Virus record (IMG/VR): IMGVR_UViG_3300042901_002277
Source: a virus
Strand: one strand, 5' to 3'
DNA: 64,000 nucleotides
Of this stretch, positions 21,269-63,507 are shown one piece after another. Both the position numbers and the translations under genes were made by a program. Positions within the stretch are counted from its first letter, which is position 1. Every line of letters starts with the position of its first letter. The notes under the pieces are model-generated. The model was not told the DNA's origin. It was given only the letters and a program-made list of their open reading frames with translations, and made no database searches.

Positions 21269-21559
21269 TTATAAGTCTCTTGGCGGTATCGGCATCCCAC
21301 CACCAGCCATTTTTAGAAATGTCTTTTCGTCAATAACCTCAAACGACCATGCATCCTGGGTGAAGCCATTATTTATTTCGTGCGGCCTTCTATCGATTAG
21401 CGACACTAGCCTGCATCTGACTAATTTCCCACCGATTTTTGAATTGACGTACCACGTCTTAACCGGGTCTCTGGTTTGCCAAATTACATAGATGCAGGTA
21501 TCTGTTTTACCGGCTTTAGTTATTTCCCCAATTGTGCCTTTTTGCGACATGCCCTTCAC
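21269..21559 (-). CDS. hypothetical protein
   Basis: ORF track, coupled start. Confidence 0.5.
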   Translation of the reverse strand: MKGMSQKGTIGEITKAGKTDTCIYVIWQTRDPVKTWYVNSKIGGKLVRCRLVSLIDRRPHEINNGFTQDAWSFEVIDEKTFLKMAGGGMPIPPRDL

Positions 21560-44649: not shown

Positions 44650-47600
44650 TTAGTCGACCATCAAATCTAATTGCCCGCTTTTTCTGATGCTGTCAAGTGT
44701 TTTCTTTAGTTCTGCTTCAACTTCTGCATCGATGTTTCTCTTAAGTATCTCATCAACCCTGGTTGTTGGGCTGGCTGTTTTATCATACGAACGAGGATTC
44801 TCGATATTCATGCCTTGTGGGTGAGCGAACTTGACGTAGCCGATTCCCATTCCTTCATACTTCTCTTTAATCTTCTTAGCAGCACGATACTCCTTGAGCT
44901 TTACCATGCTTACCGTATTTAATGGTTTGCCCCCAGATATTGAATAGAAGTAGGCAACCTCTTCTGGCGTGAATCCAAGTTTCTCAAGCTTTGATGCAAG
45001 CGACCTATCGTTCACAACATCCGAGATGTCTTCAGACTCTGCAACCTTTGCAACCTTTGTGTACGGGTAGTGAATTCCCTCTACTTCGCTCTTCTTGAAT
45101 CCACCAAGAATCTGGGCCTCAAATGGCTCGTGACCTCTAGTCGACGAGTCAACAGCGCCAACTGGCGCCATTCTGCCATTTTCATCCATTGATGCATTGA
45201 CAGAGGAGAAGTTCTTGTCCATCTTTGCTCCTAGAAGATGAAGCATCGCTTCGGTGTTCTGTTTCTTTGAAGAAATCCCATCAGCATTCATGATTGCGTC
45301 GGCGATGTCATCAGGGTCGTTGGAGTTCATCGCTACTGGTCTGTGCGCCGACTGTAGGGCCTCTCCGCGTCCGTATGCAGTGCGATTAGACACTTCTGGC
45401 TTGAGGATTACCTCTATCTCCCCTAGCGCCGTAAGACCGTCTCCCACAATGTCATTGTCGCCAACCTCAAAGATTGCATCGCTTCCGATATTGCCCTTGC
45501 CCGACGCGGCTACTCTTCTCTTCTTTTCTTCATTGTGTGAACGATGCACAACGTATCCGCTGACAGGCTTGGCTGAGTTTGGAGTTGATTTGCTAATGCC
45601 AATCCTGCTGTTGTACTCATCTCTAAATACATCTGATGAGCGTCCAGCCCTTCTGCCTGAACTAAATACACCATCAAAGTCATCGAACTCGGTCTTTACT
45701 GGTTTGTAGTCATTCTCATCAAACCCAGCAAACGGGTCATCGTATTCATTCGATATTGAAGTTGACGGAGTTGTTGGTGTTGCGTCAAAATCGCCAAACG
45801 GGTCAGTCTCTGAGGGCTTGCTCTTTCCTCTGCCAAACCTTTTCCCTATTTTTTCACGAGCAGAACCAATCACCTGTCCCGCATTTTCAAACAACTCGCC
45901 TCTTTCGGCTCGTATGATATTGCCGAACTCATCAAGTCTCTGCCTGTTCTCATCTGTAACGACTCGCTCATCAATGAAATCTGAAGCAATAGTCCAAGCG
46001 TCTGCAAGCTTGTCCACCACTGGGTCCGGAAGGCCGTTTGGTGCGACTCGGTCAACAGCCGACATTGCAACATCCATTTGATTCTGGGTTATCCTGCCCC
46101 TTTCAACTGCTTCCTCTAGACCGCGTTCAGCAATTTCTCGTCCAGCCCTTCTGGCAACATCAACCGCAAGCGCGGTTGCGAAACCAGCAGGTCCACCAGC
46201 AGCAAGAGCACCAGCCATGTTTACGCCGTACTTAACGCGTTCACGAGTATCTTCATCTGCTCCTGAACGCTTCAGAACTGCATCCAATACTCGCCCTGTT
46301 GCACGACTGCCAGCGATTCCAGCAACTCTCTGCTTCCTACTTGAACCACTTCTTGCCCCAGAAGAGAGCTTTGGAGACTCCCTTCTAGTTATTGGATTCA
46401 GTCTTCTCTCAAGTCTTCTTCCAATTGCACCACTTTCAAGGATGATGTCGTCGGTTTCCGTCGGAAGGAATTCACCATCATCCGCAAACTTAGTAAGTTG
46501 ACTTTCTGTCATTCTTATGCGTGGCCGCTTATCTATTCCTGCGTGGAACTCAACTGCAGCATCTTCAACATCCTTGAGTATTGCTTCTATTGACTTTCTA
46601 GCAACAACATCAGCTACTGCTGGGTCTAGTGATTCCCTCGACATGTCGTTCATTACATCTCTTGGACTCTCACCAGCCATGACGCGCTTGGTATCTTCAA
46701 ATGTCATATTTGCCCTGGTGGCTCTTAAAACTTTTCTTTCTTCGCGCGTCTGTGGGACGCCAAGAACTTCACGCCCTGCAGTTGGGTCCGACGCAGAACC
46801 TACTGACGTCATGCCACTTTCTGACACATAGTCTTCAGACGGTGGTTCACCAAAAGAACCGCCAGCGCTTATTACTTCACGCTTGACTTCTACGTTCTTG
46901 TCTTCGATTTCTACGTCACGCTTTGGTCGTGATGGAGTAGAAGAAAGACCGTTCTCCCTTCTTTGCGCAACATACTTATTGGCAACTCTGTCAATCTTCT
47001 TCTTGGTCCCCTTTGCGTGCCTCGATACGCCAGAACCTTCTTCGCCTATAGATGCAGAAAGCCTGTCTAGAACATCAACGACATTATCCTGCTCTTGAAC
47101 GCGGACGACTACTGTTCCGTCAGGCTTTACATCAACAACTTTCATTTTTCCTGGAGGAAGAATTAAAGCCCCTTCTTGACCGAGTTCTGTTTCATTAGTC
47201 CTGAATAGACCTTTATCACCCTTAGATACTTGCACTATTACGCGAGTCTTTTCCTTACCGGCACGAGTAACCACATCGCCATCAGGGTCACGCACTTCTC
47301 CTGGCTTATGTGGTGATTCATCAGTGATGATTCGTCCACTTACAAAACCTTGATTATCGAAGTTCTCGCTTATGTCTTTAAATCCGCTCTCTGTTACACC
47401 AAAATAAATCTCTGCTTCGATTTCCAGGTCATCAGGGATGGATGACTCATCTATCGCTTCCATTGCTGGAATAAGGACTTTCTGGATTTGGTCTTCGAGT
47501 GATGCCGTATCGCTTTCTGGAGACAGGTTTCCAGCACTTCTTTGCGCCCTTCGATAACTGCGGTTAATACTCTTTACTGCCGCTACGTTGCTGTCTGGGT

Positions 47601-50600
47601 CAAGAAGATTCCCCACGTCTGTTGTAGCTGGGTCCCCAAGTCTTTCAACTGCTCTTGCTTGCTCTTCGGACATTGCGTAGTATTCATCTTGCTGAATTTT
47701 TTTTGCGTAGCTCGCCCCAGCCTTGTCAGTCTTTACTTTCTTTGACTTTTTCATGGCTTGCTGTCTTGGAGGATTTACTATCTCATCAATTCTGGTGTCA
47801 AGTTCACGTCTCTGCTTCGACCAAACTTTTGCATCTTCGGAACCTTCGAGCTTGGACTTATATATGTCTCGGATTATTTTCTTGTCTTCTAGTAGAACCG
47901 ATTTTGCCTCTGACGATAGACCTGGCTCCTTGAGGGACACCTCAATATCGGCAAGCTTTTGCACCACCTCTTCAGGGTTCATGTCGTTGGTTTGCTGCCT
48001 CAGATTTTTGATTTCTTCTTGGCGCGCTTTGGCAGCCATTTCCTTTGGACGCAATGTACCTTCTGAAAACATCTTTTCACGAACAGACTTACGCAGGGCT
48101 CTCATGTCTCTACTGCGTCTATCCCTATCTTCGCTGCTAAACCTTTCAGCCCACCTTTTTTCTATCAAGGATATTTTTTCATTGTTTTCTTTGATTTTTC
48201 TATTCAAATCTTTAAAATCTGGCGAGTCCTTACTTACTCCATTTTTCTCCATATCGTCGAAGGCGTCGTTATACGCTTCTTTTTGATACTGAAGTCCAGA
48301 AAGAGATTCTATAAATTTTTCGTTAGTTATTGAATTGCTTGTAGTCCATCCCTCTATGTTGGACATTTCTTTTTCATGAGCTATATCAAGTCGTCGTTTT
48401 GCTAGGACCTGAGGGGTGGGTGGGTTTAATATTTCATCAACACCCTTATCAAGTTCCTTTTTCTTTTTTGACCAATCCTTGGGGTCACCAGCATCGCTAA
48501 ATCTTGACTTATATATTGCTCGAATCATTTTCTTATCTTCAAGCAGCTCCGACTTCATTCCTTCTGAAATGCCGGGTTCTTTGAGGGACGTCTCGATATC
48601 GGCAAGTTTTTGCACAAACTCATCGACTGTCATTCTATTCGCTCTGGCTTCGAGGTCGTTTATGTCCTGCTGACGTGTTCTCGCCGCCATCTCATCTGGG
48701 CGAAGCTTGCCTTCAGCAAACATCTTTTGTCGAACCGATTCCTTCATAGACTTCATATCTTTTTTACGCTTTTCACTATCAGGGCTGCTAAACCTCTCTG
48801 CCCAATTCTTTTCTATAAGCGATATGTAGTCATTTGTTTCTTTTATCTTGCGATTAATCTCCTTGAATTGTGGAGAGTCCTTGCTTTCCCCGCTTGCCTC
48901 AAGATTGTCGTAAGAATCATTTAATGATTCTTTTCTGTATTGAAGCTCTGCGAGGCTATCGACAAAATCATCACTTGTCGTGGACGTGTCATTTGACCAG
49001 TTTTGAATTTGCGAAAGACGACTCTTGTGCTCTATTTCAAGCCGTTTCCTCACTTCTGCAACGCTGTTTCCAGACAACTCTGGGTCCGGACCAAGGTTCT
49101 CGTAGTAGCGAGCCTCGATTTCTCTTAAGCCTTCTGCGTCAGACCTTCTTCTAATGTCAATGTATCTACCGTCAGATACGTCATCCATCCACTCAAGTGC
49201 AGCATCGATATCGTCCCCGTATATGAGACCAAGGTCTCTAAGAGCCCAAAGCTCTGCGGCAGCTTCCAGCGCCCAGTGCTCTGCTCCGTATTTATCGTTG
49301 AAATACATCTTTGGATATTCTCCAGCAAGAAATCCAACTACATCCGTTCTGGATAAGGCGTTTTTAAGTGACTCAAGGTCAATCCCGTCTCCAGCCTTTG
49401 ACATAAGGTCCATCACCATCCCGCTAGTGAGGTCTCTAATATTCTCCACCTTTACAGGCTCACCCTTGTCGTTGAGGACTGTAATGAAACCATTAGTCCT
49501 AATCTGTCGCTCTGCTTCTCTGTTGAAAGCTTGCATTTGAATAGTATGGGCAATCTCGTGCTTCATAATATGTCGCGCAAATGCTCGTTCTTCCACCATC
49601 GCTGCAAGTTGTTTTGAATGCCCATCGACAGTAACCAAAAAATCAGTCAGGGCAGTTGCTCTTTCCGAATCAGTCTTTCCACCAACAAAGTCGATTCGCA
49701 TTCTTTCGCCTGGAGCAAGGCTTGGTATTAATGCTTCCTGATTATTCATTATCTCAGGAATATCAACATATATGATACTCATCACACGTTTGCTGTCAGG
49801 CGATGTATACCCACCTGTAGAGGCCTCATCCATGCGTGGGTCGTCAGGACTTTTAACTTGAAAATTAATCTTTGCGATTGTCCTCATGTGCTCTGGGTCT
49901 GCAATGAATGAATCAAGAGCCGATTCGAGCAGAGCTCTTTCAGTTGTGTACCAGCGCTCTGTGTCTGCTGCGATAAGGCTCTTTTGACGTTCTGGAGTCA
50001 GGTCTGAGAATCCAGGAACATGCGCAAGTCTTGCTTTTACTATCTTGTCAATATCCTCTGCTGAAAGCCTGCTGCTTGTATCTATCGTCCATGCACCACT
50101 GTCTCTCAGCTTTTGGAAAACCTCGAATACGTCGTCATTCGTTTTCCTTTTTTCATCTGTTCTGATTACGCCAAGCGAGTCCATCAGGCTTGCGACGTTT
50201 ATGTCCTGTTGAGCAAGCTTGTCCTGCGCACGAATCATGCCATCAACGAATACCCTACTATTTCTATCGTTCAGGCTTGCTTCACGCCACTTTTTAATGT
50301 TCTTAATTCTTTTGCCGTTTTCATCACGCCATACGGTTCTGCCAATTCCCGGTATTGCTCCGTTATCTAGCCATGAGATAAACTCAAAAAGTTTTTTTGT
50401 TGTGTTTTTTACGCCGGTTTCTTTGCTGACATCAATCCCGCTTGCCATCCTTTTGGCAAAATCAAATATCTCAGATGCAGAAATTCCAAAACAATTTGTT
50501 CCTGCGCTGTCTGTGAATTGGTTTGCTGCAGGCGTTCCAGGAGGGCACCTAAATTTTCCATTTTCATCAACAATTATCCCGAACGCGCTGGCGGCTCTCG

Positions 50601-51204
50601 CTATAAGGGAACGACCTCTTTGCCCAATAGTTTGCCCTGGAAGTCTTTTTTCACCATAGCCAGAAGAGTTGGCGGTTTTTTCTCCGTTAAGGCTAAATGG
50701 GTCAAGGGTCTGTTCCGACTCCTCGATAATCTCGTCAGTCTTTTTATTGACTTTATATTTTCTTATTCGCAGTTTTGGTTTTGCTGCAAGAACTCTTGCG
50801 TATTCGTCAGCCGAAACAGAACGTGGTTCATCAACCCATCCAAAGTTTGGTTTCTTTACGGCTGTCTTTCGCAATTTAACTGATGGGAACAGGTTGAGGA
50901 TTTTACCTTCTTCCCACTTTTGGCCCGGAAGATAGTTGTACCCGTTTAGACGCTCAACCATTCCGGGCGTACCACCCTTGTTGGTTCTCTTTTTCCCATC
51001 AGTGTCTTGATATGTTTCTTTACCAGTCGCGCTGTCGAGCGCCTTGACAGAAAGACCAGCGTTCAGTGTTGGTCTTGTTATTGACTCAAGTACGGCCTTC
51101 TTGAACGCAATTGCTGCGTCGTTTAAGTCTCGCCTTCCAGCGAGCGGCGATACAAGCCTCTCGGATGTGATTGTACGTGTTTTATAGAACGGCTTACCCG
51201 TCAT
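44650..51204 (-). CDS. large multidomain virion protein (zincin HExxH, ~215-aa tandem duplication, ART-like domains)
   Basis: HEIAH...EAAAE; duplicated helical block; VIP2-like and DUF3626-like patterns; start reassigned to MTGKPF after GAAAGGGG. Confidence 0.75.
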   Translation of the reverse strand: MTGKPFYKTRTITSERLVSPLAGRRDLNDAAIAFKKAVLESITRPTLNAGLSVKALDSATGKETYQDTDGKKRTNKGGTPGMVERLNGYNYLPGQKWEEGKILNLFPSVKLRKTAVKKPNFGWVDEPRSVSADEYARVLAAKPKLRIRKYKVNKKTDEIIEESEQTLDPFSLNGEKTANSSGYGEKRLPGQTIGQRGRSLIARAASAFGIIVDENGKFRCPPGTPAANQFTDSAGTNCFGISASEIFDFAKRMASGIDVSKETGVKNTTKKLFEFISWLDNGAIPGIGRTVWRDENGKRIKNIKKWREASLNDRNSRVFVDGMIRAQDKLAQQDINVASLMDSLGVIRTDEKRKTNDDVFEVFQKLRDSGAWTIDTSSRLSAEDIDKIVKARLAHVPGFSDLTPERQKSLIAADTERWYTTERALLESALDSFIADPEHMRTIAKINFQVKSPDDPRMDEASTGGYTSPDSKRVMSIIYVDIPEIMNNQEALIPSLAPGERMRIDFVGGKTDSERATALTDFLVTVDGHSKQLAAMVEERAFARHIMKHEIAHTIQMQAFNREAERQIRTNGFITVLNDKGEPVKVENIRDLTSGMVMDLMSKAGDGIDLESLKNALSRTDVVGFLAGEYPKMYFNDKYGAEHWALEAAAELWALRDLGLIYGDDIDAALEWMDDVSDGRYIDIRRRSDAEGLREIEARYYENLGPDPELSGNSVAEVRKRLEIEHKSRLSQIQNWSNDTSTTSDDFVDSLAELQYRKESLNDSYDNLEASGESKDSPQFKEINRKIKETNDYISLIEKNWAERFSSPDSEKRKKDMKSMKESVRQKMFAEGKLRPDEMAARTRQQDINDLEARANRMTVDEFVQKLADIETSLKEPGISEGMKSELLEDKKMIRAIYKSRFSDAGDPKDWSKKKKELDKGVDEILNPPTPQVLAKRRLDIAHEKEMSNIEGWTTSNSITNEKFIESLSGLQYQKEAYNDAFDDMEKNGVSKDSPDFKDLNRKIKENNEKISLIEKRWAERFSSEDRDRRSRDMRALRKSVREKMFSEGTLRPKEMAAKARQEEIKNLRQQTNDMNPEEVVQKLADIEVSLKEPGLSSEAKSVLLEDKKIIRDIYKSKLEGSEDAKVWSKQRRELDTRIDEIVNPPRQQAMKKSKKVKTDKAGASYAKKIQQDEYYAMSEEQARAVERLGDPATTDVGNLLDPDSNVAAVKSINRSYRRAQRSAGNLSPESDTASLEDQIQKVLIPAMEAIDESSIPDDLEIEAEIYFGVTESGFKDISENFDNQGFVSGRIITDESPHKPGEVRDPDGDVVTRAGKEKTRVIVQVSKGDKGLFRTNETELGQEGALILPPGKMKVVDVKPDGTVVVRVQEQDNVVDVLDRLSASIGEEGSGVSRHAKGTKKKIDRVANKYVAQRRENGLSSTPSRPKRDVEIEDKNVEVKREVISAGGSFGEPPSEDYVSESGMTSVGSASDPTAGREVLGVPQTREERKVLRATRANMTFEDTKRVMAGESPRDVMNDMSRESLDPAVADVVARKSIEAILKDVEDAAVEFHAGIDKRPRIRMTESQLTKFADDGEFLPTETDDIILESGAIGRRLERRLNPITRRESPKLSSGARSGSSRKQRVAGIAGSRATGRVLDAVLKRSGADEDTRERVKYGVNMAGALAAGGPAGFATALAVDVARRAGREIAERGLEEAVERGRITQNQMDVAMSAVDRVAPNGLPDPVVDKLADAWTIASDFIDERVVTDENRQRLDEFGNIIRAERGELFENAGQVIGSAREKIGKRFGRGKSKPSETDPFGDFDATPTTPSTSISNEYDDPFAGFDENDYKPVKTEFDDFDGVFSSGRRAGRSSDVFRDEYNSRIGISKSTPNSAKPVSGYVVHRSHNEEKKRRVAASGKGNIGSDAIFEVGDNDIVGDGLTALGEIEVILKPEVSNRTAYGRGEALQSAHRPVAMNSNDPDDIADAIMNADGISSKKQNTEAMLHLLGAKMDKNFSSVNASMDENGRMAPVGAVDSSTRGHEPFEAQILGGFKKSEVEGIHYPYTKVAKVAESEDISDVVNDRSLASKLEKLGFTPEEVAYFYSISGGKPLNTVSMVKLKEYRAAKKIKEKYEGMGIGYVKFAHPQGMNIENPRSYDKTASPTTRVDEILKRNIDAEVEAELKKTLDSIRKSGQLDLMVD

Positions 51205-51220: not shown

Positions 51221-52678
51221 TTAGATTGTGTCAGTTTCTGCTTCGAGCAGCTGGAATTCAACAAGCGACTTCATGAAATCTCCATCAAGGGTTTCATCTT
51301 CTTTCTTGCTCATTCCTTCGCCACCTGCAACCCAGCCTGCTGGGATTAGATTTTCTTTGCCGAGTTCACGAGCGCGCTTAAGGATGTGTCGCTTTGCGGC
51401 TTCCTTGTCTTTTGCTCGACCGAATGCTTGAATCGCATTTCTCAGGTCGGACTCGCTTGCAATTGGGTATGAGCCATCTGGAAGCGCGTTTCCTTCCTTG
51501 GCCATTGAATTACGCTGCTCTTCGGTGAATGCGCGCTTCAGAGCAATTTCTGCTGCTTCGGCTTCAATCTCTTCTGCTTCTTCTGGTTCGTACTTGTCGT
51601 AACCAAGAACTTCGCCATCAAGAGCAACGAATACATCGTATGACTTTCCGTCAAATCCTTCGATTTCAACAGCGTATGAGTCGATGCCTTCGAAGTTGTC
51701 TGGCTCAACAGCAACCACATGACCGTCAATTGACTTGACTGCGATTTCAGCTGCGTCAGTGAAGCTAATCAAATTGAGTTCATCAATTGCTGCCTTCTGC
51801 TCAAACACGCTTTCATCAAGCTTGTGCCAGCCCATGACTTCTGCCGAAGTTCCATCAATGAACACTTCGACTGCCTTGCCATCCTTGCCCTGAACATCAA
51901 TGACGAACATGTCGGCATCTGGTGAGTAACCTGAATCGATTACTTTTCCATCGAACATTTCTTCAGCCATTCCCTCAACACTCAAGAGGCCTGGCATTCC
52001 TTTTTCTGCGATACATCCACCTGGGCAGTTGTCGCAGACAGAAGTTACGGCTGAGTAGGACTTACGCTCAATTGCGCAGATGTAATCATGGTCGCCAAGC
52101 TCATCTGACTTCATTCCCATTGTCGCCATGCGGCGCTTGCGGAATTTTTCCATCATGATATTTTGCTTCTCAGCTTCCGCCATGTCCTCTTCATCTTCGG
52201 AGTCCATGTCGTCTTCCATCGAGCCTTTTTCTTCTTCAGTGAAGTCTTCTTCGTCTGGGTATTCAGCTTCAAATTCGTCTTCTTCACCGGCACCTTTTTT
52301 CTTGAACTTGTGCATAGCGGTGTTGACTTTTTCTTCATCATCCATCATGTCTTCGTCATCTTCCATGTCTTCCTCTTCGGACTCCATGTCTTCTTCCGCG
52401 CCTTCTTCCATGTCCTCTTCCATGCCCATGGCCTTCATTGGCTTCTTCTTTGGCATCATGCCGTACATCTTTTGCATGTCCTCTTCGGTCATGTCTTCAT
52501 CAGCAACATCAAGGTCTGTTGCTGGTACCATCTTCATCTCTACTGGCATTGCACCGCATTTGCCACACACCTTTGCGCCTGGTGTAAAACCGCATGCAGA
52601 AGCCTCAAGCCCCTTGGCGCACTTGAGCACAGCTCCTTCGCTGTCAATACTCACTGTTGCCTTGTCGTCGTAAGCCAT
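51221..52678 (-). CDS. acidic scaffold-like head protein with PepSY-like repeats
   Basis: D/E/M-rich region; ISFTDAAEIAVKSIDGHVVAVE...YAVEI...DGEVL; C-terminal ALPDGSYPI...DLRNAI motif. Confidence 0.7.
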   Translation of the reverse strand: MAYDDKATVSIDSEGAVLKCAKGLEASACGFTPGAKVCGKCGAMPVEMKMVPATDLDVADEDMTEEDMQKMYGMMPKKKPMKAMGMEEDMEEGAEEDMESEEEDMEDDEDMMDDEEKVNTAMHKFKKKGAGEEDEFEAEYPDEEDFTEEEKGSMEDDMDSEDEEDMAEAEKQNIMMEKFRKRRMATMGMKSDELGDHDYICAIERKSYSAVTSVCDNCPGGCIAEKGMPGLLSVEGMAEEMFDGKVIDSGYSPDADMFVIDVQGKDGKAVEVFIDGTSAEVMGWHKLDESVFEQKAAIDELNLISFTDAAEIAVKSIDGHVVAVEPDNFEGIDSYAVEIEGFDGKSYDVFVALDGEVLGYDKYEPEEAEEIEAEAAEIALKRAFTEEQRNSMAKEGNALPDGSYPIASESDLRNAIQAFGRAKDKEAAKRHILKRARELGKENLIPAGWVAGGEGMSKKEDETLDGDFMKSLVEFQLLEAETDTI

Positions 52679-52815: not shown

Positions 52816-55800
52816 TTAACGTCTACTTTTCGAGTTGTCGTGAAGTCGGAGAAGACTTGTCCATTGAGTTGGAGACAGGAACCCTTGTGCCTTGAATTGC
52901 GAAACAAGGCTTTGAGCGAAATTGCTCCACGTGGCATTTTCTGCCCAGCCCATTATTTCATTTTGCATTCTTGGGGTTATGTTCTCTGGGGCTCCGTTGT
53001 TCTTGCGTCCAGATGCAAGCTTTTCAACTGCTTCCTGTCCGGTGTTGGATATTCTGCGAGCAGCTCTTCTTCCGCTACTCAACGAACCACCACTCTTAAT
53101 TGACTCAACCGTCTCGTCGGTGTCGAACATTGTGTTAAGTCTGTCAACTATTACCTGAACTTCGTCATCGGAATAACGAAGTGCTTTTCCAGTGTTTTTA
53201 CTGAATTTTCCTTCTTTTCCTTCTTCGAAAGCCTTGAGTCTTGTTTGGACCTTGGTTGCTCCAATCACTTCGTCAAGTTCTCTACCTTTTACTCTTTTGC
53301 CTCTTCTGGCAAGAGTGTCGGTGATGTTTTTCCAAAGGTCGAATTGTCTAATTGAGTTGTCAAACTTAACTCCCTCTTCACCGAATACGTCTCCAGCGCT
53401 TGGGATTATGCCCTTGTCGACAAGTTGCTCAATAATGGATGTCGGAACTCCTTCTTTTTTCCATTTTTTAAGCTGTATTGCAGTTGGCTTAATCTCTTCA
53501 CCGTCAACCTCAAACGTAATGGCTTCTGCTAGGTCGTCATCAGACTCAACTCCGAATGATTCTGCAAGGGCAGAAACGGGGAAGGCGCTCTTTGAAACTT
53601 CTCTAGCAACAAACTCCTCAGGAAGCTCGAAATCTATTGGTGCGTAGAGGGGGTACATCGCTATACCCTCTTCTTTGTAGTCCTCGTATTCTGCTCTGCT
53701 TAGCTGATTACCTCTACGACGGTCATACCAGTAAGGAGCTGCATCGAAGCCCCAAACTGCCTCAAGCGTCTCGTATGACCTGCCTGGGTCTCTGCCGTTA
53801 AAGAATGCCCTGTCGATAAATTCGTAAGCGTCTATTTCAGAAATACCCGCCCCATCTTGGAACATCTTTTCAAGTTCTATCTCGCTTACGCCAAGGAATT
53901 TTGCACTCTGCTCCCTGTCTAGTGGGTTCCCGTCTTCGTCCCTAAGAATTTGCTCGAGTTTTTTAGCGTCAAGCATCCACTTACCATCTGGTGACCTGTC
54001 GTTATTCCCTGACATTTTGCCAAATTTTATTTTGACTTTGTCCTGAAGGTAATTGCCGACACTGTTTCTGGTCTCGCTGTTAGGGAATCTGAGTCTTCCA
54101 GAGCTGAGTCGGTCGGTACCAAATTCATCTTTGCTTGGTCCTGGTCGCCTCTTGCTTGGGATAGTTGCTGCTCTTTGTCTTACTCCGTCAGCGAATGCCT
54201 GTCTATCGGCATCCGCCATTGGGCGACGCTTTGAGCCTTGAGTTCTATTTCTTCTACCAGAAGAAAACTCTGCTGCATCGCCTTCAACCATATCGAAGTT
54301 AGAGAGGTTCCTAGGAGAAAAAACATCATCAGGAGTTCCCGTAATATCTTCTCTGTCTATGGCCACTCCATTGTCTTCAAAGAACGTCTGAGTGCTAAAA
54401 AGGTCGCTCAGCTCGTCTTCAAGACCATTTACGTTCTTGACGTACAAATCTCCAAGCTTTGATGCAAACTCTTGTGGAGTCAAATCTCCACGGTCTGCAG
54501 AATCGATGAGTTCTTTTATTTCGGCAATTTGCTCTTCGTGGGTAACCGTGGAGAATCTGTCTTCTACGTCGTCAATTTCCTCGAGTGCATAGATAATGGA
54601 GTCTGCGTCAGATTTGATTAGGTCAATAGCTCTTTCGTTGTCCCCATCGGCAAGGTCTATATTTCTCTCCATCGCTGATTCGAAATCAACTGGGCCTGGA
54701 ATGTCCCTTGCCCCCATGCGAGTTGTGGTTCTGAAGGCATCTTCTAGTTCAGAAATGCTGCCCTTCATGTCCTCAATCTCGTCATTTAGTCCAGAGAGGG
54801 TCTCTTCTGTACGTCTCAATTCATCGTGAATTCTGTCTATCGCATCGTCGATGTCCACCAGCAAATCCATCTCATCTTCTGCAACTGGCGCATATTTGTC
54901 AATTTCGAAAATAGACGAACCGGCAGGCATTCTCTTGCCATCAAGCAAGGAACGGAGCAAATCATTTCTTAGAGCGACAAGTCGGTCGAGAGATTGAACT
55001 GCTTCGGCGTGGTCTTCAAGAGGGATTGTTACGCGGAACTCACCTTTTTTCTCTGTTCCAAGCCTTCCGCCAAAAGCATTTTGTACAACCATGCTCTCGT
55101 ATCGAGCGTCGTCCTCAATCTCCGCACGCACTTCATCAAGTGGTCTGATTCTCCCAGAACTCAATCTGCCTGAAGTGACATTTCTTGTTCTTTGCGCCCT
55201 GGCACCAGGGGTGCCACGTGGAACACCTGGTTGTGTCGGGTTGTATGGAGCATCCGCGCCGTCAACTAGTCCCTCAATCTTGTGGAGACTGTAACTTCTG
55301 TACTGACCTTGGTCATCGTCAAGACCTACGACATATATGCCGCCGCCTTTTTTGGCCATCATTCCAGTTGGGTAGATGGTTCTTGGCTTTCCGCCGTACG
55401 TGAATGAAACGCTTTCACCGTTCCTGCGTATCGAGTCAAAATCGTACTTATCAGCAGGCACAGGGGCTAATCGAGAAGCGATGTATCTTGAGTTTGAACC
55501 AGCTTCATCCGTTCTCTTAAGAGCATTCGATACTGTGCCAATTGTTTCTACTGGAGTTTCGTCGTATCTTGAGCGAACGCCAGATGAAAGCCTGCCATTT
55601 TCTCTTGCAAGCTCCATCCGAATATCGCTGGCCTCATCTGCCCAGTCTTCTGCGCTCCATTCAAGACGTGATTCATCAATCTCCGCAATCATCCGCGTGT
55701 ATTGCTGCCTGTCGTAACGTTCGTTCACAATCCTTATGGAATCTTGATACTCTGCGTCTCTGCGGGCTGTTTCTTCGTCAAGCATGCTTGATATTTTTTC

Positions 55801-58800
55801 AAAATCTGTTTCTTCTTTGAATTTTTTAGCCCATGCTTTACGGGTGTCTTCGTAATCGCTAATCCACCTAGCCACATCTTCAGGACTGTCGTATTCATCG
55901 CTGACGACTCCAGCCCAATCACGGTCGGAGTCCTCATTGAATTCAAGTCGCAGCAGTGCTGCACTCCAAAGGCCGTTTTCGCCCTCGGTGATGTCCCATT
56001 CATTGTCTGAAGCCCTTGATTCTTCAAAATCTGCACGGCCAACAAAGTAGTGCCTGTCGTTAATGCGACCACCTCTTGCCATATCAAATCTGGTTAAGAG
56101 TTCATCTCCGAATGCGCCCATTTCGTCAGCAAGGGTTCTTATTGTTCCTTCTGGATTCCTTACGTATTTTTCACGTTTGCCAGAAGAAAGTGAAGGACCG
56201 ATGTCGCCATATCCTCCGTCGTTGTTGCCTGGGAGTACTCCTGACTCTGCAACTTTTTTGCCGAGCTTTGCGCTCATTGATGGAGACTTTGATATTGCGT
56301 AATCATGTGCTTTTTGAGCTTCGCCAAAAGCCTTCTTCATTGCATCAGGGTCAGACTTAAGTTTCTTCAACCAGCCAGCAAGATACTGCGCATGGTCCTC
56401 TCTTGGCTCTGGGGTTAGACCATGTGCAGCCATAAAGAATGCAGAAGCTATTTCTGCAACAAGTTCTTCTTGTGCATACTCAGGGCTTCCAAACTCTCCA
56501 AGATGGTCTCTGTTCAGACGTGATGGATGTCCTGTCCAGTGCATTAACTCGTGAGCGAATACCGCGTAATAACCTTCTCTGCTCTTGAATGCAGAGAATG
56601 GAGGAAGATGTATTTCGTCTGTTGATGGTCTATAGAATGCTCTATCTCCACCAGTATTAACAACCGCACCAACTTCTGACAAGGCTTGTTCAAGTTCGGC
56701 TACGCGCTCTTCTTCTGGGAGTTCTGGGACTCTGAACTTCTCCTTATCGATTCCGTCAATTTGGTCGATGTTGAAAACATGTCCAGTCTTAAAGAACACT
56801 CCTCCGGACCCGCGAATTTCATTTCCGTCTGCATCCTTCTTTTTAGGAATAATTGTAGGAATCAATATCAAGGTGCCTTTTTCGCCCTTGCGTACTGTTC
56901 CGCCCTCTTTTTTCCACTGATTAAACCCAGCCCATAGAGGCATGTCGTAACCCATTGCGTCCTGCTTGAACATCAGCATTACGCTGTTGATTCCGCTGTA
57001 AGGACGGTTGTTGTTCGTTACGTTCTTCGGCAGAGATGTCTTGTGCCAAGGGAACTCCCACTTGCCATCACCTGATTCTTGAATCTTTTCTATTTGCTCT
57101 ATCAGGTTTGATTGAACGCTTCTGTAAACCTCGTCCAACTTTCCTGATGAAAGCCTTTGACCAACTTCAAGGTCATCAAGAGGACTTACGTAATCTTTTC
57201 TTCCAGAAGAGAATGCTCCATCGCGGTCAAGCCAGCGTTTTGCTTCTTTATCCATGCTGCGCATGAGTTGCATATGCTTTTGCTCGCGAGTTCTAATATC
57301 TTCTCTGCTCATTCCAAGGGCTTCTGCCGTTGCGGCAAGAGACTCCCCGCCCATGCGGCGAAGATAAATTGATTCATTCAGAGCAAGCTCTGCTGCTTCT
57401 TCTGCAGCCATGCGTGCCTGGTCTTCACGATAAGCCTCAATGTCATCAAAGTCTGGAGTTTGCAATGTTCCGCGCTCGCGGGCCATATGGCGCATTTCTG
57501 CTTGTCTAACTTCCTCGCGCTTCATACCAAGAGCTTTTGCTGTTTCTGCAAGAGACTCTCCAGCCATGCGGCGTTCAAATACTTCTCTGTCAGAGATTCG
57601 CGATTCCTGTTCTTCGCTTATTCTTCCTGAAGAAAGGTTTCTGTCTTGACGGTTGTCGTAGAGCCTTTCCAGATAATCCTGGTACATCGCCTTTGCGGCT
57701 CTGTTGAAGTTGTCGCTGTAGTTATCGCCTTGTTCTCTGTACTCGTCTAGATATTCTTCCTGCTTCGGTGAATCACTGCTGTAAAGCCAGTGGTCAAGAA
57801 TTCTTTCTACTTCATCTTCGCTTGAGCCATCTGAGGAGAGGTCTCTCCGCATCTCCGACATCATGTCAGCCCATTCTCTGTCGTCCTTGTCGAGCTCGAG
57901 CATCATTTCACGGTCCGGGTGAGCTTCTGGCGTGTACTCCAATAGGCTCGACAAATCCACATCATGGTCTTCAAGGGTCTGCCAATCTCCATCCCTTGCT
58001 GCGTCTACGAGGAAGCTGGCATAATTGTCTCTAATTGCATCAACATTGTCACCACGTTCGTAGTCACCTGAATCATCAATGAATTTTCTAAAACCATAAT
58101 CAAAATCTGGGTCTGAATCTGCACCACCAATTACGCGGCCTATTTCATCTGCAAGATTTTTGGCTGCCTGTTGCTTGTCGATTTCGTCAAGTTCGTCAAA
58201 TTTGCGCATCCCTGAAGAGAAGCGTGAAGTCAGCCCACTGTCGCTGAGTTTTTGTTTAAATGCTTCTTGGTGCTCTGCGCTTCCGTATTCAGCTCCGGCT
58301 GGTTTGTAGTTCTCCGCTACGTATTGCAGCTTGTCAATTGGGGCTGCTTCTTCGTAGATACTCTCGAAGTACTCTTGGTCGGATGCATCACTGCGTCGTT
58401 CTGGTTTGGCGTAGTCAATTAGCTCTTGTTCGGTTGTTGGACCATAAACTGATTCATATTTTTCTTCGTCGGTTCCATCTGCGTCTACGAATTCATTAAA
58501 CACCCAATCGTCCCAGGACTCACCTTCTGGAAGCATGTCATCAAGAATGTCGATAAATGCCGCATTTCTGTTGAACATCTCTCTTTCGCGGTCATCCATC
58601 GGCACTGGTCGGTCGCTGTCTGTTCGTCCAGAAGAAAGACCTGACAATGAGACTTCAGCATCACTGTCGTATTTTTCAATCCAGCCAAGTGAGCCAAGGT
58701 CTAGTTCCTCTTCGGCTCGAGTTACAGCGACATAAGACAGCCTGAGTTCTTGCTCATCAGGGAATACAACGTTGCCCAAATCGTCTTTTTTCGGTCCTCT

Positions 58801-61800
58801 AAAGTCAGACCAAATCAACACCCTTGGCGACTCTAGGCCCTTAGATGTATGTGCAGTCTGTATGTGCACGTACTCATCTCTGTTTTTAGGCAATTTAGCC
58901 TTATCCGTGATAACTCTGTCCAAGGCGTCGCGAAGTTCTTCAAACGAATACTTGTCAAGTATCTTTCCAAGCATGTTCAGTCGATTGTTATCTTTTTTCT
59001 CAATCGCTTTATTGAATTCATCTAGGGTTGTTATACCGTCTAGGTCTTGGCTCTCCTTCGGCTTGCCAAAATTTTGCTTGCCATCAACATCCGTGAAGTA
59101 ACCCGTTCCAGTTGCTGAAGTTGTCATGTACTCAATGTTGTCAATGAACGCACTAAGGTCGTCTTTGAAGTTTTTGCTGCCATAGACAGTTCTACCTTTT
59201 TCAAAGCTATCCAGCGTTGCTGCTATTCCTCCGCCGTTAGACCTTGTCAAAATCATTGTTGGATTACTGATTGAGCCAACTCTTCCATCTACAGGTCGTC
59301 CGGACTTGTCTGTTTTTCTACCGTTCATTCGCTCGGTTCTTCCGAGCAAATTCAAGAACCTATTTCCCCTATCGGCTATTTCTTTTCCAAATCTGAAGGA
59401 GTCGGTAATTGGCATGTCGTATTTTGCATATGCATCAGCAAGGGTTTTCCCGTCAGCCCCACGCCACGCGTTAATAGCCTGGTTCGTATCTCCGATGTAA
59501 ATTCGCTGAATACCATTTGAGTTACGCAATATTCCGGCAAAAACAGGATTCATATCCTGGGCCTCGTCGACCATTGCCACGTTTACTCCCTCGGAGTCAC
59601 CAATGTCAGGATTCGTTAAAGCCCACATCTTTGTTACATGCATGTTCGTCATCGGAAGCATGCCCTTACCCGAGTCGCTGCCTTTTGGAGCAACTCGCGG
59701 AGTATTCATGTCTTCCCACATCTTTTTAGCAAATGGGAGAAGTTCTGCGATAATTTCAGGATTTTCTACGGCCATTTTGCCGTTGTACTTTCCCGCGAAG
59801 TGCTGTGAGCCAATTTCTGTATCACCACTAATTGCAAAGGCATCTACAGCTTTTGCGACTCTCTTGTACACATCTACTGCTGTTAATTCTTTACCTTCGT
59901 CAACAGTCCCTCTTGTGCCCAGGTAGGTTGCTCTGTCTACGAATCTCATTATTGGTTTTATATATGCGCTGTCTTTGGAGAAACTCTTTGCCGTCATTTC
60001 CGGATTGATTGTACGCATTGCGTTGTATGAAACGCCGTCCATCGTCATTACCTTGACATTGTCCGGCATCCCTCTCTTGCCAGCATCGTCTTTTGCATTT
60101 GCGTTGAAGACCAAATACAGAGCTCTAGCTGAAGGTTCTGTATCTTTGAGTCGTTCTGCAAAATTTATTACCGTAGTAGTTTTTCCGGTTGCTGCAAGAG
60201 CTGAAATCTTTACATCATCTCCAGTCATCATTGCGTCTATTGCATTCGACTGCTCCGGAGTTGGCTTTCTGCCACCAGGTGCATTTGGGTAGTCGTATTC
60301 AGGTACGTCTGCCAGGTCAATAATTTCTCTTCTCTTTCCAGAGAATGGAGCGCTTGGTGATTTTGATGTAGAAGTTTTTGGAGTACTATCTGGTTTTGCC
60401 CCACCGAACATTCTGTCCAATGTCGACCATTGTTTTTCAGAAAGCTTTCCGTTTCTGCGGTACTGACGAGCAACGCTTGCGGCGAAAGTCTCTGTTCCGT
60501 CAGGCTTGCGAGCCGAGGCTGATTCAGCAGCTTCTATCAATCTTTTTTGTTTAGCTGAATCAGGAATCGCACCAGAAGAAAGTTTTCCGTCATCAACAGG
60601 CTTGGAACGTTTTTCGTTGACAGAGGCAATTTCTCCCTCCATGTGGAACCGAGCCTGCGCCCAATCTCCCGCATTAACAAGCCTCTCAAATCTTGCTCGC
60701 GACTTATCTGTTGGACCCTCTAAGTCAAGGTTTCTCTCTTCTAGTGCGTTGGCGATAATTTCGTCAAGTTCACCCATGAGGCCCAGGTATGCGCGTGCCC
60801 GACCATTAATCGGGCCATCATTGATTTCGTCTCCGTTGACTCGGGATTTTAACGCGCGAAGGTCCGCTAGTACCGGCTTCCAAGCGGCAAGTCTCTCTGT
60901 CTCACTACCAAATTGATTACCAGAAGAAAGTTTGCCTTCTGAATTAAGCTTGCGAAGTTCCTGAAGGTCTGGTCCTTTTGCTGCACCAGCACCAGCTTTT
61001 TTCTTTTTCTTTTTCTTTTTCTTTAGTGTGTCTGCATCCAAAAGACCAATGTCGTTCAGGTATTCGTTGAGGGTGGCGATGTCTTCTTTTGCCCAGTCCT
61101 GCGTGTCTGGGTACTTAGACTTGACGTCTGCTCTAAGGGCCGATTCAATTCCGTCCCAGTTGTCTGAGTCATCCCTGCTGTGCGCATCAAGATAGGCGCT
61201 AACCGATTTTGCATAGCTTGAATACCAGTTGCTGTATTCTTGCGAAGCTTTTTGCTTCTCGTTGAACTTTTCAGGACGCTTTCTTACGGAATCGCCATTC
61301 CACATAACACGTGCTTGGTTGACTCCGATTTCGCGACCACGGAGATAGTCAGAACTTAAATTGTTATCTGCGTTGTAGCGTGGAACTTCTTCCCAGCCAA
61401 GACCCTGCTCATCCCATGCTTTAGCGATTGCTTCGTGGTCTACGCGCTTCTGATTTTCTTCAGCATTTGGGAATTGCTTTTCCATGTCGGCAGAACGGTC
61501 TGCATGGCGACGCTCATTACGCTTGCCAGAAGAGAGTTTTTCTGTATCAGCAAGTTCGGCTCGCTGACTCATCTGCCTCTTTGATGGCTTCGGTGAATTG
61601 ATGGAGCCAGGACCAGAAGGCGTTGGGTCGGGTTGTTCCCATGGCGTGCCGTCGCCGACCATGCTATTTAGGTTTGCGTCTTCGACTGTTCTTGGGTCCC
61701 AGCCTGGAGGCGGATTTATACCGGAACCACGAGAGCGACGACCCCTTTTACCGCCAAGATTTGGTCGGTCAATTCCTCGGCTTGCAATCGCACGACCGAT

Positions 61801-63507
61801 ACGGCGGCCAAGTGCTTTTTCTTCTATTTGCTCAGAAGCTATTTTTTTTTTTAGAAATTCATAAGCAGAAGATGCAGCTCTAGTTATAGCGTCCTTCGAC
61901 TCTTCGCTGAGCGGTGAGTTAATCACGATTCCGTACTCGTTGACGGTTGTGTCAATTCTGTGGTAATCAAGAACTGGGTCAATTACCGACTTGAATTCAA
62001 AGGCGTCTTCAAGATTTACTGGAATGACGTATGACGAGTCTTGAGCCAAGAATGGGTCGAGACCCTTTTCCTCAAGCTCTTGCTCCTCTACGCCCCACTC
62101 CTCAAGAGTCTTATAAGAGCGACGCTTTCTACGGCGCTTCTTCACCGTGTTACGCAAAACCCCAAGAATGAATTCTCCAGGGTACTTCGCTTCGATGTCC
62201 TCAACCATCTTGATTTCTTCGTCATCAAGAATGTCGTTGTATTCCTTCTTGCCAAATCCGACAACAACTCCATCTGGGATGATTGCAAATCGGCACTTGC
62301 CCTCGTCTTCGACTTTAAGGCCAAGAATCTTGCACTTGCCTTCGCCTTGGTAGAGGACGCAATTTGAGCACTTTACGCCGATGTCTTTTACTTTGTTCTC
62401 GGCAGGCGGGTAATATCCAGCCCAAATTCCATCACCATCTTCGTCAAACTTTCCGTACTTGCGAGCGATACGAACAAGCGATTCGGCAAGCTCGCTCTCT
62501 TCTGCACCAAGCTCTGGCTTTTTGTTCTTGTCAGAACCTTCGTACTCAACAGGCGCCAATGGAACCATGACCATTCCGCCATTAACTGGCTTCATTGCTA
62601 CAGGCATTGCCATTGCAGGGTTATTTGTCGACGGCTTATTCGGTTTGCCCATAATCCCAGGCATTGGCGAAGGGCCAGACTGGACTGGCGGTTTTGCCTG
62701 TTCTGCGTGAATTAATTCTGGCTTGCCAAACATGTACTCGCTTCCAGTGAAGTGGTAACCAATTCTGAATTTTCCTTTTCCTGGCTTCACAAAAACCACA
62801 GAGTTCTCAGTCGCTTCAACAACCATGACTGGTCCTGCGGCGCGGCGTGAAAGTTCGGCAACCACTCCTGCAAGCTGTGGTCCACTTATTCTTTGTGAAA
62901 CACCTTCGTCAAACAGTCCGTCTCGTCGTGGCTCTGATGATGGAGCGCTTATTGACATAGGCATCATCCCATGCATCTTCTCTTCATCGCTCTTTACGGA
63001 AATTGTTCCAGTTAGTTGGTTCGCGCCGTGAAGAACAGGGGAAACCTCGTAGAGTTCTACTTCGTAGAGAACGTTTGCTTGCAGGTTGTCGTCGTACTGC
63101 GCTCTAAGAGTCTTGTAGCCGATTGACCACTCTTGCTCTTCGCCAAAGAAAGCCACGTTCGCAAATGCTTCTTTGCCCTTTTCTGACTGCAGGTTGAATT
63201 GAACCTTTGCGTACAATCCGCCAATTCCAGCCATTTTCATCTTCATAGGAAGGCGTGGGTCGGAAGCAGGGACTTCGTATATTTCAAGGACCTTACCAAT
63301 TGGGTCGTTCCAGTTGTGGCCCCATACAACACGTGGCTTACGACGCTGAAGGCTCTTAGCAAATGCACCAGTAGCGCAAATGTCACCAACAGAGTCTTTG
63401 TTGCCTATTCCGGAAACAAAACATTCAACAATTCCTTCAAGCTCATCTAGCTTGATGAGACCATTCGAGGCCTTGTATTGAATGTTTCCGAAGTTAGAGT
63501 TTGGCAT
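52816..63507 (-). CDS. giant prohead protease fusion / polyvalent protein (HK97 protease, SF1 helicase, HTH x2, ArdC-zincin, WYL)
   Basis: DSVGD..GAF, WGH, WSIGY, LYEVSPV..GAN; AATGKTT/DEAQD/KGLE/YVAVTRA; PW..N..YSGIN/HELMH/EELVAE; WYL pattern. Confidence 0.9.
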   Translation of the reverse strand: MPNSNFGNIQYKASNGLIKLDELEGIVECFVSGIGNKDSVGDICATGAFAKSLQRRKPRVVWGHNWNDPIGKVLEIYEVPASDPRLPMKMKMAGIGGLYAKVQFNLQSEKGKEAFANVAFFGEEQEWSIGYKTLRAQYDDNLQANVLYEVELYEVSPVLHGANQLTGTISVKSDEEKMHGMMPMSISAPSSEPRRDGLFDEGVSQRISGPQLAGVVAELSRRAAGPVMVVEATENSVVFVKPGKGKFRIGYHFTGSEYMFGKPELIHAEQAKPPVQSGPSPMPGIMGKPNKPSTNNPAMAMPVAMKPVNGGMVMVPLAPVEYEGSDKNKKPELGAEESELAESLVRIARKYGKFDEDGDGIWAGYYPPAENKVKDIGVKCSNCVLYQGEGKCKILGLKVEDEGKCRFAIIPDGVVVGFGKKEYNDILDDEEIKMVEDIEAKYPGEFILGVLRNTVKKRRRKRRSYKTLEEWGVEEQELEEKGLDPFLAQDSSYVIPVNLEDAFEFKSVIDPVLDYHRIDTTVNEYGIVINSPLSEESKDAITRAASSAYEFLKKKIASEQIEEKALGRRIGRAIASRGIDRPNLGGKRGRRSRGSGINPPPGWDPRTVEDANLNSMVGDGTPWEQPDPTPSGPGSINSPKPSKRQMSQRAELADTEKLSSGKRNERRHADRSADMEKQFPNAEENQKRVDHEAIAKAWDEQGLGWEEVPRYNADNNLSSDYLRGREIGVNQARVMWNGDSVRKRPEKFNEKQKASQEYSNWYSSYAKSVSAYLDAHSRDDSDNWDGIESALRADVKSKYPDTQDWAKEDIATLNEYLNDIGLLDADTLKKKKKKKKKAGAGAAKGPDLQELRKLNSEGKLSSGNQFGSETERLAAWKPVLADLRALKSRVNGDEINDGPINGRARAYLGLMGELDEIIANALEERNLDLEGPTDKSRARFERLVNAGDWAQARFHMEGEIASVNEKRSKPVDDGKLSSGAIPDSAKQKRLIEAAESASARKPDGTETFAASVARQYRRNGKLSEKQWSTLDRMFGGAKPDSTPKTSTSKSPSAPFSGKRREIIDLADVPEYDYPNAPGGRKPTPEQSNAIDAMMTGDDVKISALAATGKTTTVINFAERLKDTEPSARALYLVFNANAKDDAGKRGMPDNVKVMTMDGVSYNAMRTINPEMTAKSFSKDSAYIKPIMRFVDRATYLGTRGTVDEGKELTAVDVYKRVAKAVDAFAISGDTEIGSQHFAGKYNGKMAVENPEIIAELLPFAKKMWEDMNTPRVAPKGSDSGKGMLPMTNMHVTKMWALTNPDIGDSEGVNVAMVDEAQDMNPVFAGILRNSNGIQRIYIGDTNQAINAWRGADGKTLADAYAKYDMPITDSFRFGKEIADRGNRFLNLLGRTERMNGRKTDKSGRPVDGRVGSISNPTMILTRSNGGGIAATLDSFEKGRTVYGSKNFKDDLSAFIDNIEYMTTSATGTGYFTDVDGKQNFGKPKESQDLDGITTLDEFNKAIEKKDNNRLNMLGKILDKYSFEELRDALDRVITDKAKLPKNRDEYVHIQTAHTSKGLESPRVLIWSDFRGPKKDDLGNVVFPDEQELRLSYVAVTRAEEELDLGSLGWIEKYDSDAEVSLSGLSSGRTDSDRPVPMDDREREMFNRNAAFIDILDDMLPEGESWDDWVFNEFVDADGTDEEKYESVYGPTTEQELIDYAKPERRSDASDQEYFESIYEEAAPIDKLQYVAENYKPAGAEYGSAEHQEAFKQKLSDSGLTSRFSSGMRKFDELDEIDKQQAAKNLADEIGRVIGGADSDPDFDYGFRKFIDDSGDYERGDNVDAIRDNYASFLVDAARDGDWQTLEDHDVDLSSLLEYTPEAHPDREMMLELDKDDREWADMMSEMRRDLSSDGSSEDEVERILDHWLYSSDSPKQEEYLDEYREQGDNYSDNFNRAAKAMYQDYLERLYDNRQDRNLSSGRISEEQESRISDREVFERRMAGESLAETAKALGMKREEVRQAEMRHMARERGTLQTPDFDDIEAYREDQARMAAEEAAELALNESIYLRRMGGESLAATAEALGMSREDIRTREQKHMQLMRSMDKEAKRWLDRDGAFSSGRKDYVSPLDDLEVGQRLSSGKLDEVYRSVQSNLIEQIEKIQESGDGKWEFPWHKTSLPKNVTNNNRPYSGINSVMLMFKQDAMGYDMPLWAGFNQWKKEGGTVRKGEKGTLILIPTIIPKKKDADGNEIRGSGGVFFKTGHVFNIDQIDGIDKEKFRVPELPEEERVAELEQALSEVGAVVNTGGDRAFYRPSTDEIHLPPFSAFKSREGYYAVFAHELMHWTGHPSRLNRDHLGEFGSPEYAQEELVAEIASAFFMAAHGLTPEPREDHAQYLAGWLKKLKSDPDAMKKAFGEAQKAHDYAISKSPSMSAKLGKKVAESGVLPGNNDGGYGDIGPSLSSGKREKYVRNPEGTIRTLADEMGAFGDELLTRFDMARGGRINDRHYFVGRADFEESRASDNEWDITEGENGLWSAALLRLEFNEDSDRDWAGVVSDEYDSPEDVARWISDYEDTRKAWAKKFKEETDFEKISSMLDEETARRDAEYQDSIRIVNERYDRQQYTRMIAEIDESRLEWSAEDWADEASDIRMELARENGRLSSGVRSRYDETPVETIGTVSNALKRTDEAGSNSRYIASRLAPVPADKYDFDSIRRNGESVSFTYGGKPRTIYPTGMMAKKGGGIYVVGLDDDQGQYRSYSLHKIEGLVDGADAPYNPTQPGVPRGTPGARAQRTRNVTSGRLSSGRIRPLDEVRAEIEDDARYESMVVQNAFGGRLGTEKKGEFRVTIPLEDHAEAVQSLDRLVALRNDLLRSLLDGKRMPAGSSIFEIDKYAPVAEDEMDLLVDIDDAIDRIHDELRRTEETLSGLNDEIEDMKGSISELEDAFRTTTRMGARDIPGPVDFESAMERNIDLADGDNERAIDLIKSDADSIIYALEEIDDVEDRFSTVTHEEQIAEIKELIDSADRGDLTPQEFASKLGDLYVKNVNGLEDELSDLFSTQTFFEDNGVAIDREDITGTPDDVFSPRNLSNFDMVEGDAAEFSSGRRNRTQGSKRRPMADADRQAFADGVRQRAATIPSKRRPGPSKDEFGTDRLSSGRLRFPNSETRNSVGNYLQDKVKIKFGKMSGNNDRSPDGKWMLDAKKLEQILRDEDGNPLDREQSAKFLGVSEIELEKMFQDGAGISEIDAYEFIDRAFFNGRDPGRSYETLEAVWGFDAAPYWYDRRRGNQLSRAEYEDYKEEGIAMYPLYAPIDFELPEEFVAREVSKSAFPVSALAESFGVESDDDLAEAITFEVDGEEIKPTAIQLKKWKKEGVPTSIIEQLVDKGIIPSAGDVFGEEGVKFDNSIRQFDLWKNITDTLARRGKRVKGRELDEVIGATKVQTRLKAFEEGKEGKFSKNTGKALRYSDDEVQVIVDRLNTMFDTDETVESIKSGGSLSSGRRAARRISNTGQEAVEKLASGRKNNGAPENITPRMQNEIMGWAENATWSNFAQSLVSQFKAQGFLSPTQWTSLLRLHDNSKSRR

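Follow-up and report, generated by a model that had tools for sequence, protein, structure and literature searches.

A peptide tag between the cargo modules of a giant phage head polyprotein recurs in the tape measure protein: a probable cutting site with a candidate reader

Polyvalent proteins of phages are large multidomain polypeptides encoded among virion genes, in which ArdC-N, MPTase, helicase and assemblin-like peptidase domains occur, and for which injection and proteolytic release were predicted, with autoproteolysis but without sites (Iyer et al. 2017, PMC5512222). Head-loaded and ejected proteins are also known as the T4 internal proteins and Alt, processed by gp21, and as the SPN3US gp245 substrates, whose leaders are removed by the prohead protease (PMC10052503). 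In HK97, maturation involves the S78 protease gp4 and the capsid protein gp5, with the site at K103/S104 (PMC10275583). Zincins of the lethal-factor and Pro-Pro endopeptidase (PPEP) type are sequence-specific endopeptidases (PMC12828418), and in the tape measure proteins of T5 and lambda a cut separates a hydrophobic part from a muralytic domain, which happens during tail assembly and not after ejection (10.1101/2022.09.20.507954); the latter source also cites a paper whose title claims host involvement in T5 tail protein cutting.

The locus compared here with these systems lies in a window of 64,000 nucleotides (IMG/VR record IMGVR_UViG_3300042901_002277; positions refer to this window unless given as genome positions), which is part of a complete phage genome of 160,449 bp. 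Three WhiB-family genes (genome 67028-67240, 86354-86521 and 115329-115520) point to an actinobacterial host, a tail sheath gene is present according to weak Pfam matches, and the phage appears to be an uncultured actinobacterial myophage. The gene order is portal, polyprotein, PepSY-repeat protein, a giant protein of 2184 aa (the second giant), five genes and the HK97-type capsid gene, so that the polyprotein sits between portal and major capsid genes, in the head-gene context that had been proposed for it. The PepSY-repeat protein between the two giants (485 aa, 51221-52678, minus strand) carries no motif of the kind described below and shows an unusual degree of conservation, 62-73% even in distant relatives; by inspection, its C-terminus resembles that of the gp27 protease of Gordonia phage DalanDe.

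The polyprotein, an ORF of 3563 aa (52816-63507, minus strand) composed of protease, scaffold-like region and cargo as judged from ORF, Pfam and PHROGs, contains 14 exact [L/F]SSG motifs, at aa 658, 860, 976, 1624, 1763, 1958, 2099, 2119, 2440, 2640, 2782, 3081, 3134 and 3476, where 0.17 would be expected from its composition, and one LASG at aa 3497. L or F precedes SSG in 14 of 14 cases. On the DNA the 15 [L/F]-[S/A]-S-G joints range over 53008-61536 (minus strand) and start, as low coordinates, at 61525, 60919, 60571, 58627, 58210, 57625, 57202, 57142, 56179, 55579, 55153, 54256, 54097, 53071 and 53008; all residues and nucleotide positions agreed with those of a previous sequence-only reading of this DNA. 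Its claim that conservation is at the protein level was likewise upheld, since 127 distinct 12-mers were counted among 192 instances of the motif and both Ser codon boxes are used, and this free choice of codons indicates that selection acts on the peptide. A DNA repeat or assembly artefact was considered as the origin of the motif and is ruled out by the 127 codon strings and the many independent contigs. TCT is over-used within the motif (50-58% vs 23%), which is compatible with a second role as a recombination point. K or R stands at -1 or +4 in 15 of 15 sites of this protein, and across homologues R/K is found at -1 in 58% of sites and at +4 in 54%; the description of the motif as usually followed by R/K holds for 11 of the 15 sites here and fails for four. 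The estimate of about 15 effectors was similarly too high for modules of substantial length, 11 segments having at least 100 aa and four only 20-67 aa. No description of the motif was found in the literature searched, which mostly did not extend to subscription journals.

Pfam placed the recognisable domains of the polyprotein at aa 26-176 (S78), 1083-1602 (UvrD), 1973-2083 (sigma70-r4 HTHs), 2127-2245 (ArdC-N), 2271-2393 (MPTase) and 2696-2747 (WYL). Each domain recognised by Pfam or PHROGs lies wholly within one inter-motif segment and none is crossed by a motif, for which we estimate a chance of ~0.003 with 15 random sites; the motifs thus do bracket the domains without ever falling inside them, as had been claimed. 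The modules so delimited, all on the minus strand, include M2 (202 aa, 60931-61536), which belongs to no family and is the first cargo in most long homologues; an SF1/UvrD-like helicase module (aa 976-1623, 58639-60582; Pfam/PHROGs), which is present or absent and repositioned across relatives; a tandem sigma70-r4-like HTH module (57214-57636; Pfam); an ArdC-N plus MPTase zincin module (56191-57153; Pfam), a cargo missing in some motif-bearing relatives; a WYL module (55165-55590; Pfam); and the helical M4 (342 aa, 53083-54108), whose predicted fold is confident. The fold search VIA returned weak Xre/Cro-HTH-like matches for M4, with Z up to 4.7, which are not significant; Foldseek gave no significant match in PDB, Atlas gave nothing, and all VIA Z values stayed below 5. 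A short helical motif was seen at the C-terminal module (52819-53019) and again where the helicase module begins (60300-60500), both on the minus strand, and by eye also in the ORF at 21556-22140.

From IMG/VR, 80 homologues of the polyprotein were collected, and all those of 2.5-3.5 kaa bear 4-18 copies of the motif. Segments split at the motif form recurring clusters that appear in varied order and combination among the homologues. When unsplit proteins of at least 50% identity were aligned, 70% of alignment ends lay within 20 aa of a motif compared with 19% at random, with the same result after masking of the motif. Between close relatives, several blocks of DNA homology start at base 0 or stop at +10 to +16 of the motif, and there the DNA of the tag doubles as a module exchange point. 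The motif is therefore conserved and located at module boundaries in homologues, where modules are gained, lost and reordered, and the sequence-only reading was right to regard the cargo as exchangeable. The recognisable modules are nucleic-acid-acting or regulatory (helicase, HTHs, ArdC and WYL here, KTSC and a DEDDh exonuclease in relatives), while for most of the 66 cargo modules taken from relatives neither Pfam nor PHROGs gave a family. One relative (L047:9917-20499) presents the polyprotein as two overlapping ORFs of ~2480 and ~1100 aa, the second containing ArdC-MPTase, by a split or a frameshift.

The tag is shared with two further large proteins of the phage. The second giant (44650-51204, minus strand) consists of a Lys site, a leader, a zincin, a region that looks ART-like by inspection and cargo bounded by motifs, and carries MASG (50437-50448), LSSG (46357-46368) and FSSG (45655-45666). 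The tape measure protein, encoded outside the window (genome 12730-16947, L081:731-4948, minus strand), has FSSG at residue 36; a strict motif near its N-terminus was present in 17 of 27 representatives (<85% identity), and an internal one (residues 540-900) in 20 of 22 long representatives, this internal site being degenerate in the phage under study. The motif is absent, as SSG, from the major capsid protein and the portal, and over the rest of the genome (38,260 aa outside polyprotein, giant and tape measure gene) it was seen 8 times vs 5 expected. The ART-like region of the second giant (47020-47442, minus strand) resembles ART/VIP2 by inspection, with ART/VIP2 motifs that look degenerate, and it received no Pfam support. 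Hydrophobic stretches of the tape measure protein lie at about 82-143 and at about 728-799, and its C-terminus matches Peptidase M15 weakly (E 0.04).

Shorter polyprotein homologues have GLASS, GLRS, LRSS or GARS in place of LSSG, and each genome uses one such dialect across polyprotein, second giant, extra giants and tape measure, as exemplified by GLASS in G001, LRSS/LRSG in G002 and GLSSG in G006. In ~88 representatives of the second giant the general pattern, which was chosen after inspection, was seen 298 times vs 85 expected, and GMRS and GFNS were found as further dialects. One relative (L049) carries a DEDDh exonuclease module in its polyprotein, and six second giants carry it too; both flanks of this module are LSSG-type, GLASS or GMRS, matching the carrier, and no other observation speaks as strongly for a lineage-specific factor that reads the tag in trans. 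As the tag is common to polyprotein, second giant and tape measure, it is probably a cutting site, and we consider its cleavage by some protease to be likely. In two relatives a separate gene (L174:8410-9399 and L176:14636-15823) encodes the module that follows the last FSSG of the second giant. Two others (L171:7896-17557 and L175:10048-17808) combine short protease fusions with extra giants of 2200-2600 aa and with a DUF3721 fusion, which have a leader and cargo bounded by motifs; cargo thus moves among several head genes.

A different kind of site marks the N-terminal part of the polyprotein (all features on the minus strand). It begins with an HK97-type (S78) prohead protease (aa 13-172, His64/Ser128, 62992-63471) bracketed by Lys12 and Lys172 and matching PF04586 with 36.6 bits (cut-off 21) and phrog_80 with E 5e-25, continues with a constant region (aa 173-564, 61816-62991) with Lys sites K481 and K564, for which a role as scaffold is presumed, and leads after K564 into a conserved leader (ALGRxIG ... 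DGT-W-x-x-PDP, 61618-61815) of a type, Lys followed by L/I-G-x-x-IG, that is common to the second giant and other head proteins. The HK97-type major capsid protein (38577-39953, minus strand) has a predicted maturation site at Lys100/Ser101 (39651-39656), and K/R followed by S/T at about residue 100 was found in the sequences of six capsid proteins. Lys-type sites number 48 vs 11 expected in the first 600 aa of the polyprotein and 30 vs 43 expected in the cargo, and K12, K172, K481 and K564 are unchanged whatever the dialect. On the simplest reading of these patterns the head protease would free itself and the scaffold and expose the leader, and the SSG tag would belong to a separate step. Searches of PDB sequences with the protease and with the zincin gave nothing meaningful. 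A 692-aa protein of the head region (41541-43619, minus strand) has a Lys site and an RCP-type leader as in the second giant, its C-terminal part being HipA/kinase-like by eye and without Pfam match, and a DUF6321 protein (36382-37956, minus strand) has a Lys site, a leader and a repetitive Arg/Ala/Asp-rich tail without SSG motif.

The zincin is an invariant part of the second giant (49135-50007, minus strand; HExxH at 49546-49560, Tyr630, Glu647/651), its position being fixed behind the leader in the relatives found, and it was present in five of five larger genomes. His-Glu-His is kept in 89 of 89 aligned relatives, Tyr in 93% and Glu in 88-89%. Its predicted model (pLDDT 91.5) was matched best by VIA to the lethal-factor catalytic domain, with a moderate Z of 9.8 (rmsd 4.2, 170 aligned), followed by PPEP-2 (Z 6.7) and PPEP-3 (Z 6.3); no Foldseek PDB match at E 0.001 and no Pfam match were obtained. 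Against the GLASS/LRS/GARS lineages its identity falls to 12-18%, with the head protease holding at 82-86%. In a tree calculated with a quick method the LSSG dialect forms one supported branch and dialects cluster; however, relatives share dialect labels, so this clustering does not amount to co-evolution and ancestry alone would produce it. The second-giant zincin is a candidate for the reader of the tag, to which we would give slightly less than even odds. The motif precedes the zincin in some relatives only, and the domain could alternatively be an effector against host proteins. A hydrophobic residue right after the cut is usual for zincins, and on this preference our guess is a cut before L/F/M. 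A role of the PepSY protein as inhibitor of the zincin is not favoured: its conservation remains at 62-73% where that of the zincin sinks to 12-18%, and by inspection its C-terminus recalls the tail of the DalanDe protease. The genome encodes three HExxH proteins: ArdC-MPTase, the second-giant zincin and a protein of 512 aa, the latter adjoined by an AAA_5 ATPase in a non-structural region (genome 107292-109552, plus strand; L194), a pair resembling MoxR and peptidase-vWA (PMC7824862).

The herpes enzyme with the cleavage pattern V/L-x-A has the same fold as the HK97-type protease, and the likeness of L-x-S to this pattern is one argument for the proposal of the sequence-only reading that the fused prohead protease itself cuts the joints in the capsid, be it after a flanking Lys/Arg or in a herpes-assemblin-like hydrophobic-x-small register. 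The enzyme is moreover encoded in cis with the joints, all 15 of which have K/R at -1 or +4 here (R/K in 58% and 54% of sites at these positions across homologues), FASG/LASG motifs lie inside the scaffold region in one clade, T4 gp21 acting on internal proteins offers a precedent, and the phi12 capsid protein is cleaved at R128/L129 (PMC8569155). Yet the protease has invariant Lys sites of its own, which are segregated from the SSG sites and come near only 4 of 174 joints; the basic flank is lacking at 9 of 10 and 7 of 8 sites of L035 and L036, respectively, and at GLASS sites; the motif is missing from capsid protein and portal but kept in the tape measure, a tail component outside the procapsid; and the dialects shift while the protease remains 82-86% identical and its Lys sites constant. 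The proposal was accordingly not sustained in this form, and we regard it as unlikely. The ArdC-associated MPTase inside the polyprotein, as cutter of the joints, would correspond to the autoproteolysis proposed generally for polyvalent proteins (PMC5512222), and its HExxH is intact at aa 2319-2323. Complete polyproteins of L035 and L036 nevertheless have 8-10 motifs without MPTase, PF18818 found no match in G001, which is 91% complete and has the motif in four proteins, and none in the head region of either G002 or G006, and the MPTase is itself a shuffled module. As a general reader it is largely excluded by its lack in these motif-bearing relatives, and the reading is highly improbable.

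Another protease might read the tag, either an enzyme of the host that the phage encounters on infection or the phage HExxH protein with its AAA ATPase. Host proteases mature proteins of phage 80alpha (PMC8569155), a paper cited in 10.1101/2022.09.20.507954 claims in its title host involvement in T5 tail protein cleavage, the 512-aa HExxH protein is found in four of five relatives with 42-59% identity, and for a comparable pair the processing of structural proteins has been proposed (PMC7824862). The gene of the HExxH/AAA pair is, however, far from the late genes and its product has no leader, and activity in the producing cell would sever cargo from its address before packaging; against a host protease stands that dialects track the phage lineage, although hosts may vary by lineage too. 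We therefore judge this reading improbable, as we do the one in which the tag remains uncut and acts as a binding or translocation signal for tail-threaded proteins or as a short flexible linker kept by DNA recombination. With an uncut tag agree the over-use of TCT and the exchange points on the motif, the fact that every carrier is a candidate ejected protein, and the examples of N4 virion RNA polymerase and ArdC, which travel uncut (PMC5512222). It is at odds with the strict residues despite free codons, with the fixed position in the tape measure, conserved without module exchange there, and with the re-tuning of both module flanks to the local dialect and the placement only between domains.

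The reading preferred here, with a probability of roughly 0.45, is a two-code model in which Lys cuts in the procapsid are followed by zincin cuts at the tag. By its domains and gene context, the polyprotein would be built into the procapsid via its protease-scaffold end. As in HK97, the protease would cut Lys/Arg sites in the capsid protein, at its own borders and at K564, and the cut at K564, a site marked by conservation, would expose the leader on a cargo chain of 3000 aa. [L/F/M]-x-S-(G/S), which cargo chain, second giant and tape measure protein share, would be a second cutting code of proteins passing through the tail. The phage itself would encode the reader, which would differ by lineage; the most likely candidate is the second giant's lethal-factor/PPEP-like zincin, probably cutting just before the hydrophobic residue. 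For one reader to meet all three substrates, at or after ejection would be the simplest timing, because a cut made ahead of packaging would strip cargo of its address and the middle of the tape measure, inside the tail tube, is hard to reach for an enzyme of the head; alternatively, cargo may be cut in the capsid and the tape measure while the tail assembles, on the T5 pattern. Under the two-code model the released modules would serve early takeover or counter-defence. More tentatively, and with odds we would set clearly below even, a widespread family of actinobacterial phages may share this arrangement, with a leader uncovered in the capsid by the head protease and a short lineage tag, carried by ejected head cargo and tape measure alike, that is read by a co-delivered zincin so that modules are freed at or after host entry.

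Since 2017 the processing of polyvalent proteins has been predicted but its sites left undefined, and here sites, dialects and a candidate enzyme become explicit, so that it can be tested with peptides and one domain of 290 aa in cognate and non-cognate pairs. Dozens of discrete modules, most of them unannotated, are delimited in the cargo by the tag and become candidates for effectors of the first minute against Actinobacteria; the tag also ties the processing of head cargo to that of the tape measure, normally treated apart. If delivery by two proteases is true, sequence would suffice to read the injected cargo, and the tag would offer modules a natural plug-in site.

Compared with the T4 and SPN3US systems (PMC10052503), a conserved leader beside a head-protease site is present here too, with a sequence unrelated to the T4 leader; sites in those phages represent the head protease's own motif, whereas the joints here differ from the Lys sites, rarely found near them (4/174), and reach a tail protein. 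With HK97 gp4/gp5 (PMC10275583) the locus shares the S78 protease and, at the matching place of the capsid protein, Lys100/Ser101, but unlike gp4 the protease is fused to a scaffold-like region, a leader and 3000 aa of cargo. The second-giant zincin has the HExxH, the catalytic Tyr and the third-ligand Glu of lethal factor and PPEPs, the residue set of PPEP-3 being the same (PMC12828418); identity is 10-14%, the zincin here is embedded in a phage head protein, and its endopeptidase activity is putative. As in T5 and lambda, cleavage of the tape measure would fall between its hydrophobic part and the muralytic domain, while a motif common to head cargo is not reported for those phages (10.1101/2022.09.20.507954). 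Cultured actinophages with the nearest proteases are Gordonia phages DalanDe, GMA6 and Chidiebere, Brevibacterium phage Cantare and Streptomyces phage Gilgamesh; their proteases are ~40% identical, sometimes in a long fusion, with Lys-type sites, and EIKS occurs four times in the DalanDe capsid protein. The L-x-S motif was not enriched in giant head proteins of DalanDe, Chidiebere, Cantare and Gilgamesh, and with the motif missing in these cultured relatives no cultured model was found.

The locus also corresponds to polyvalent proteins. The number of disparate domains in one polypeptide falls within the 2-15 described for them, the hallmark families PF18818 (E 9e-43), PF08401 (E 2e-24) and PF00580 were matched, and the gene lies among virion genes between those of portal and major capsid protein. 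These features place the ORF among polyvalent proteins as PMC5512222 describes them, and its cargo would be packaged and injected. A peptide motif joining head cargo and tape measure would, relative to polyvalent proteins in the literature searched, be new. The peptidase is N-terminal here and reported as always C-terminal in PMC5512222, which is a trend and not a strict criterion; the repeated joint motif is explicit here, the word 'linker' being absent from that work; and the present motif is common to the tape measure, with the MPTase as dispensable cargo.
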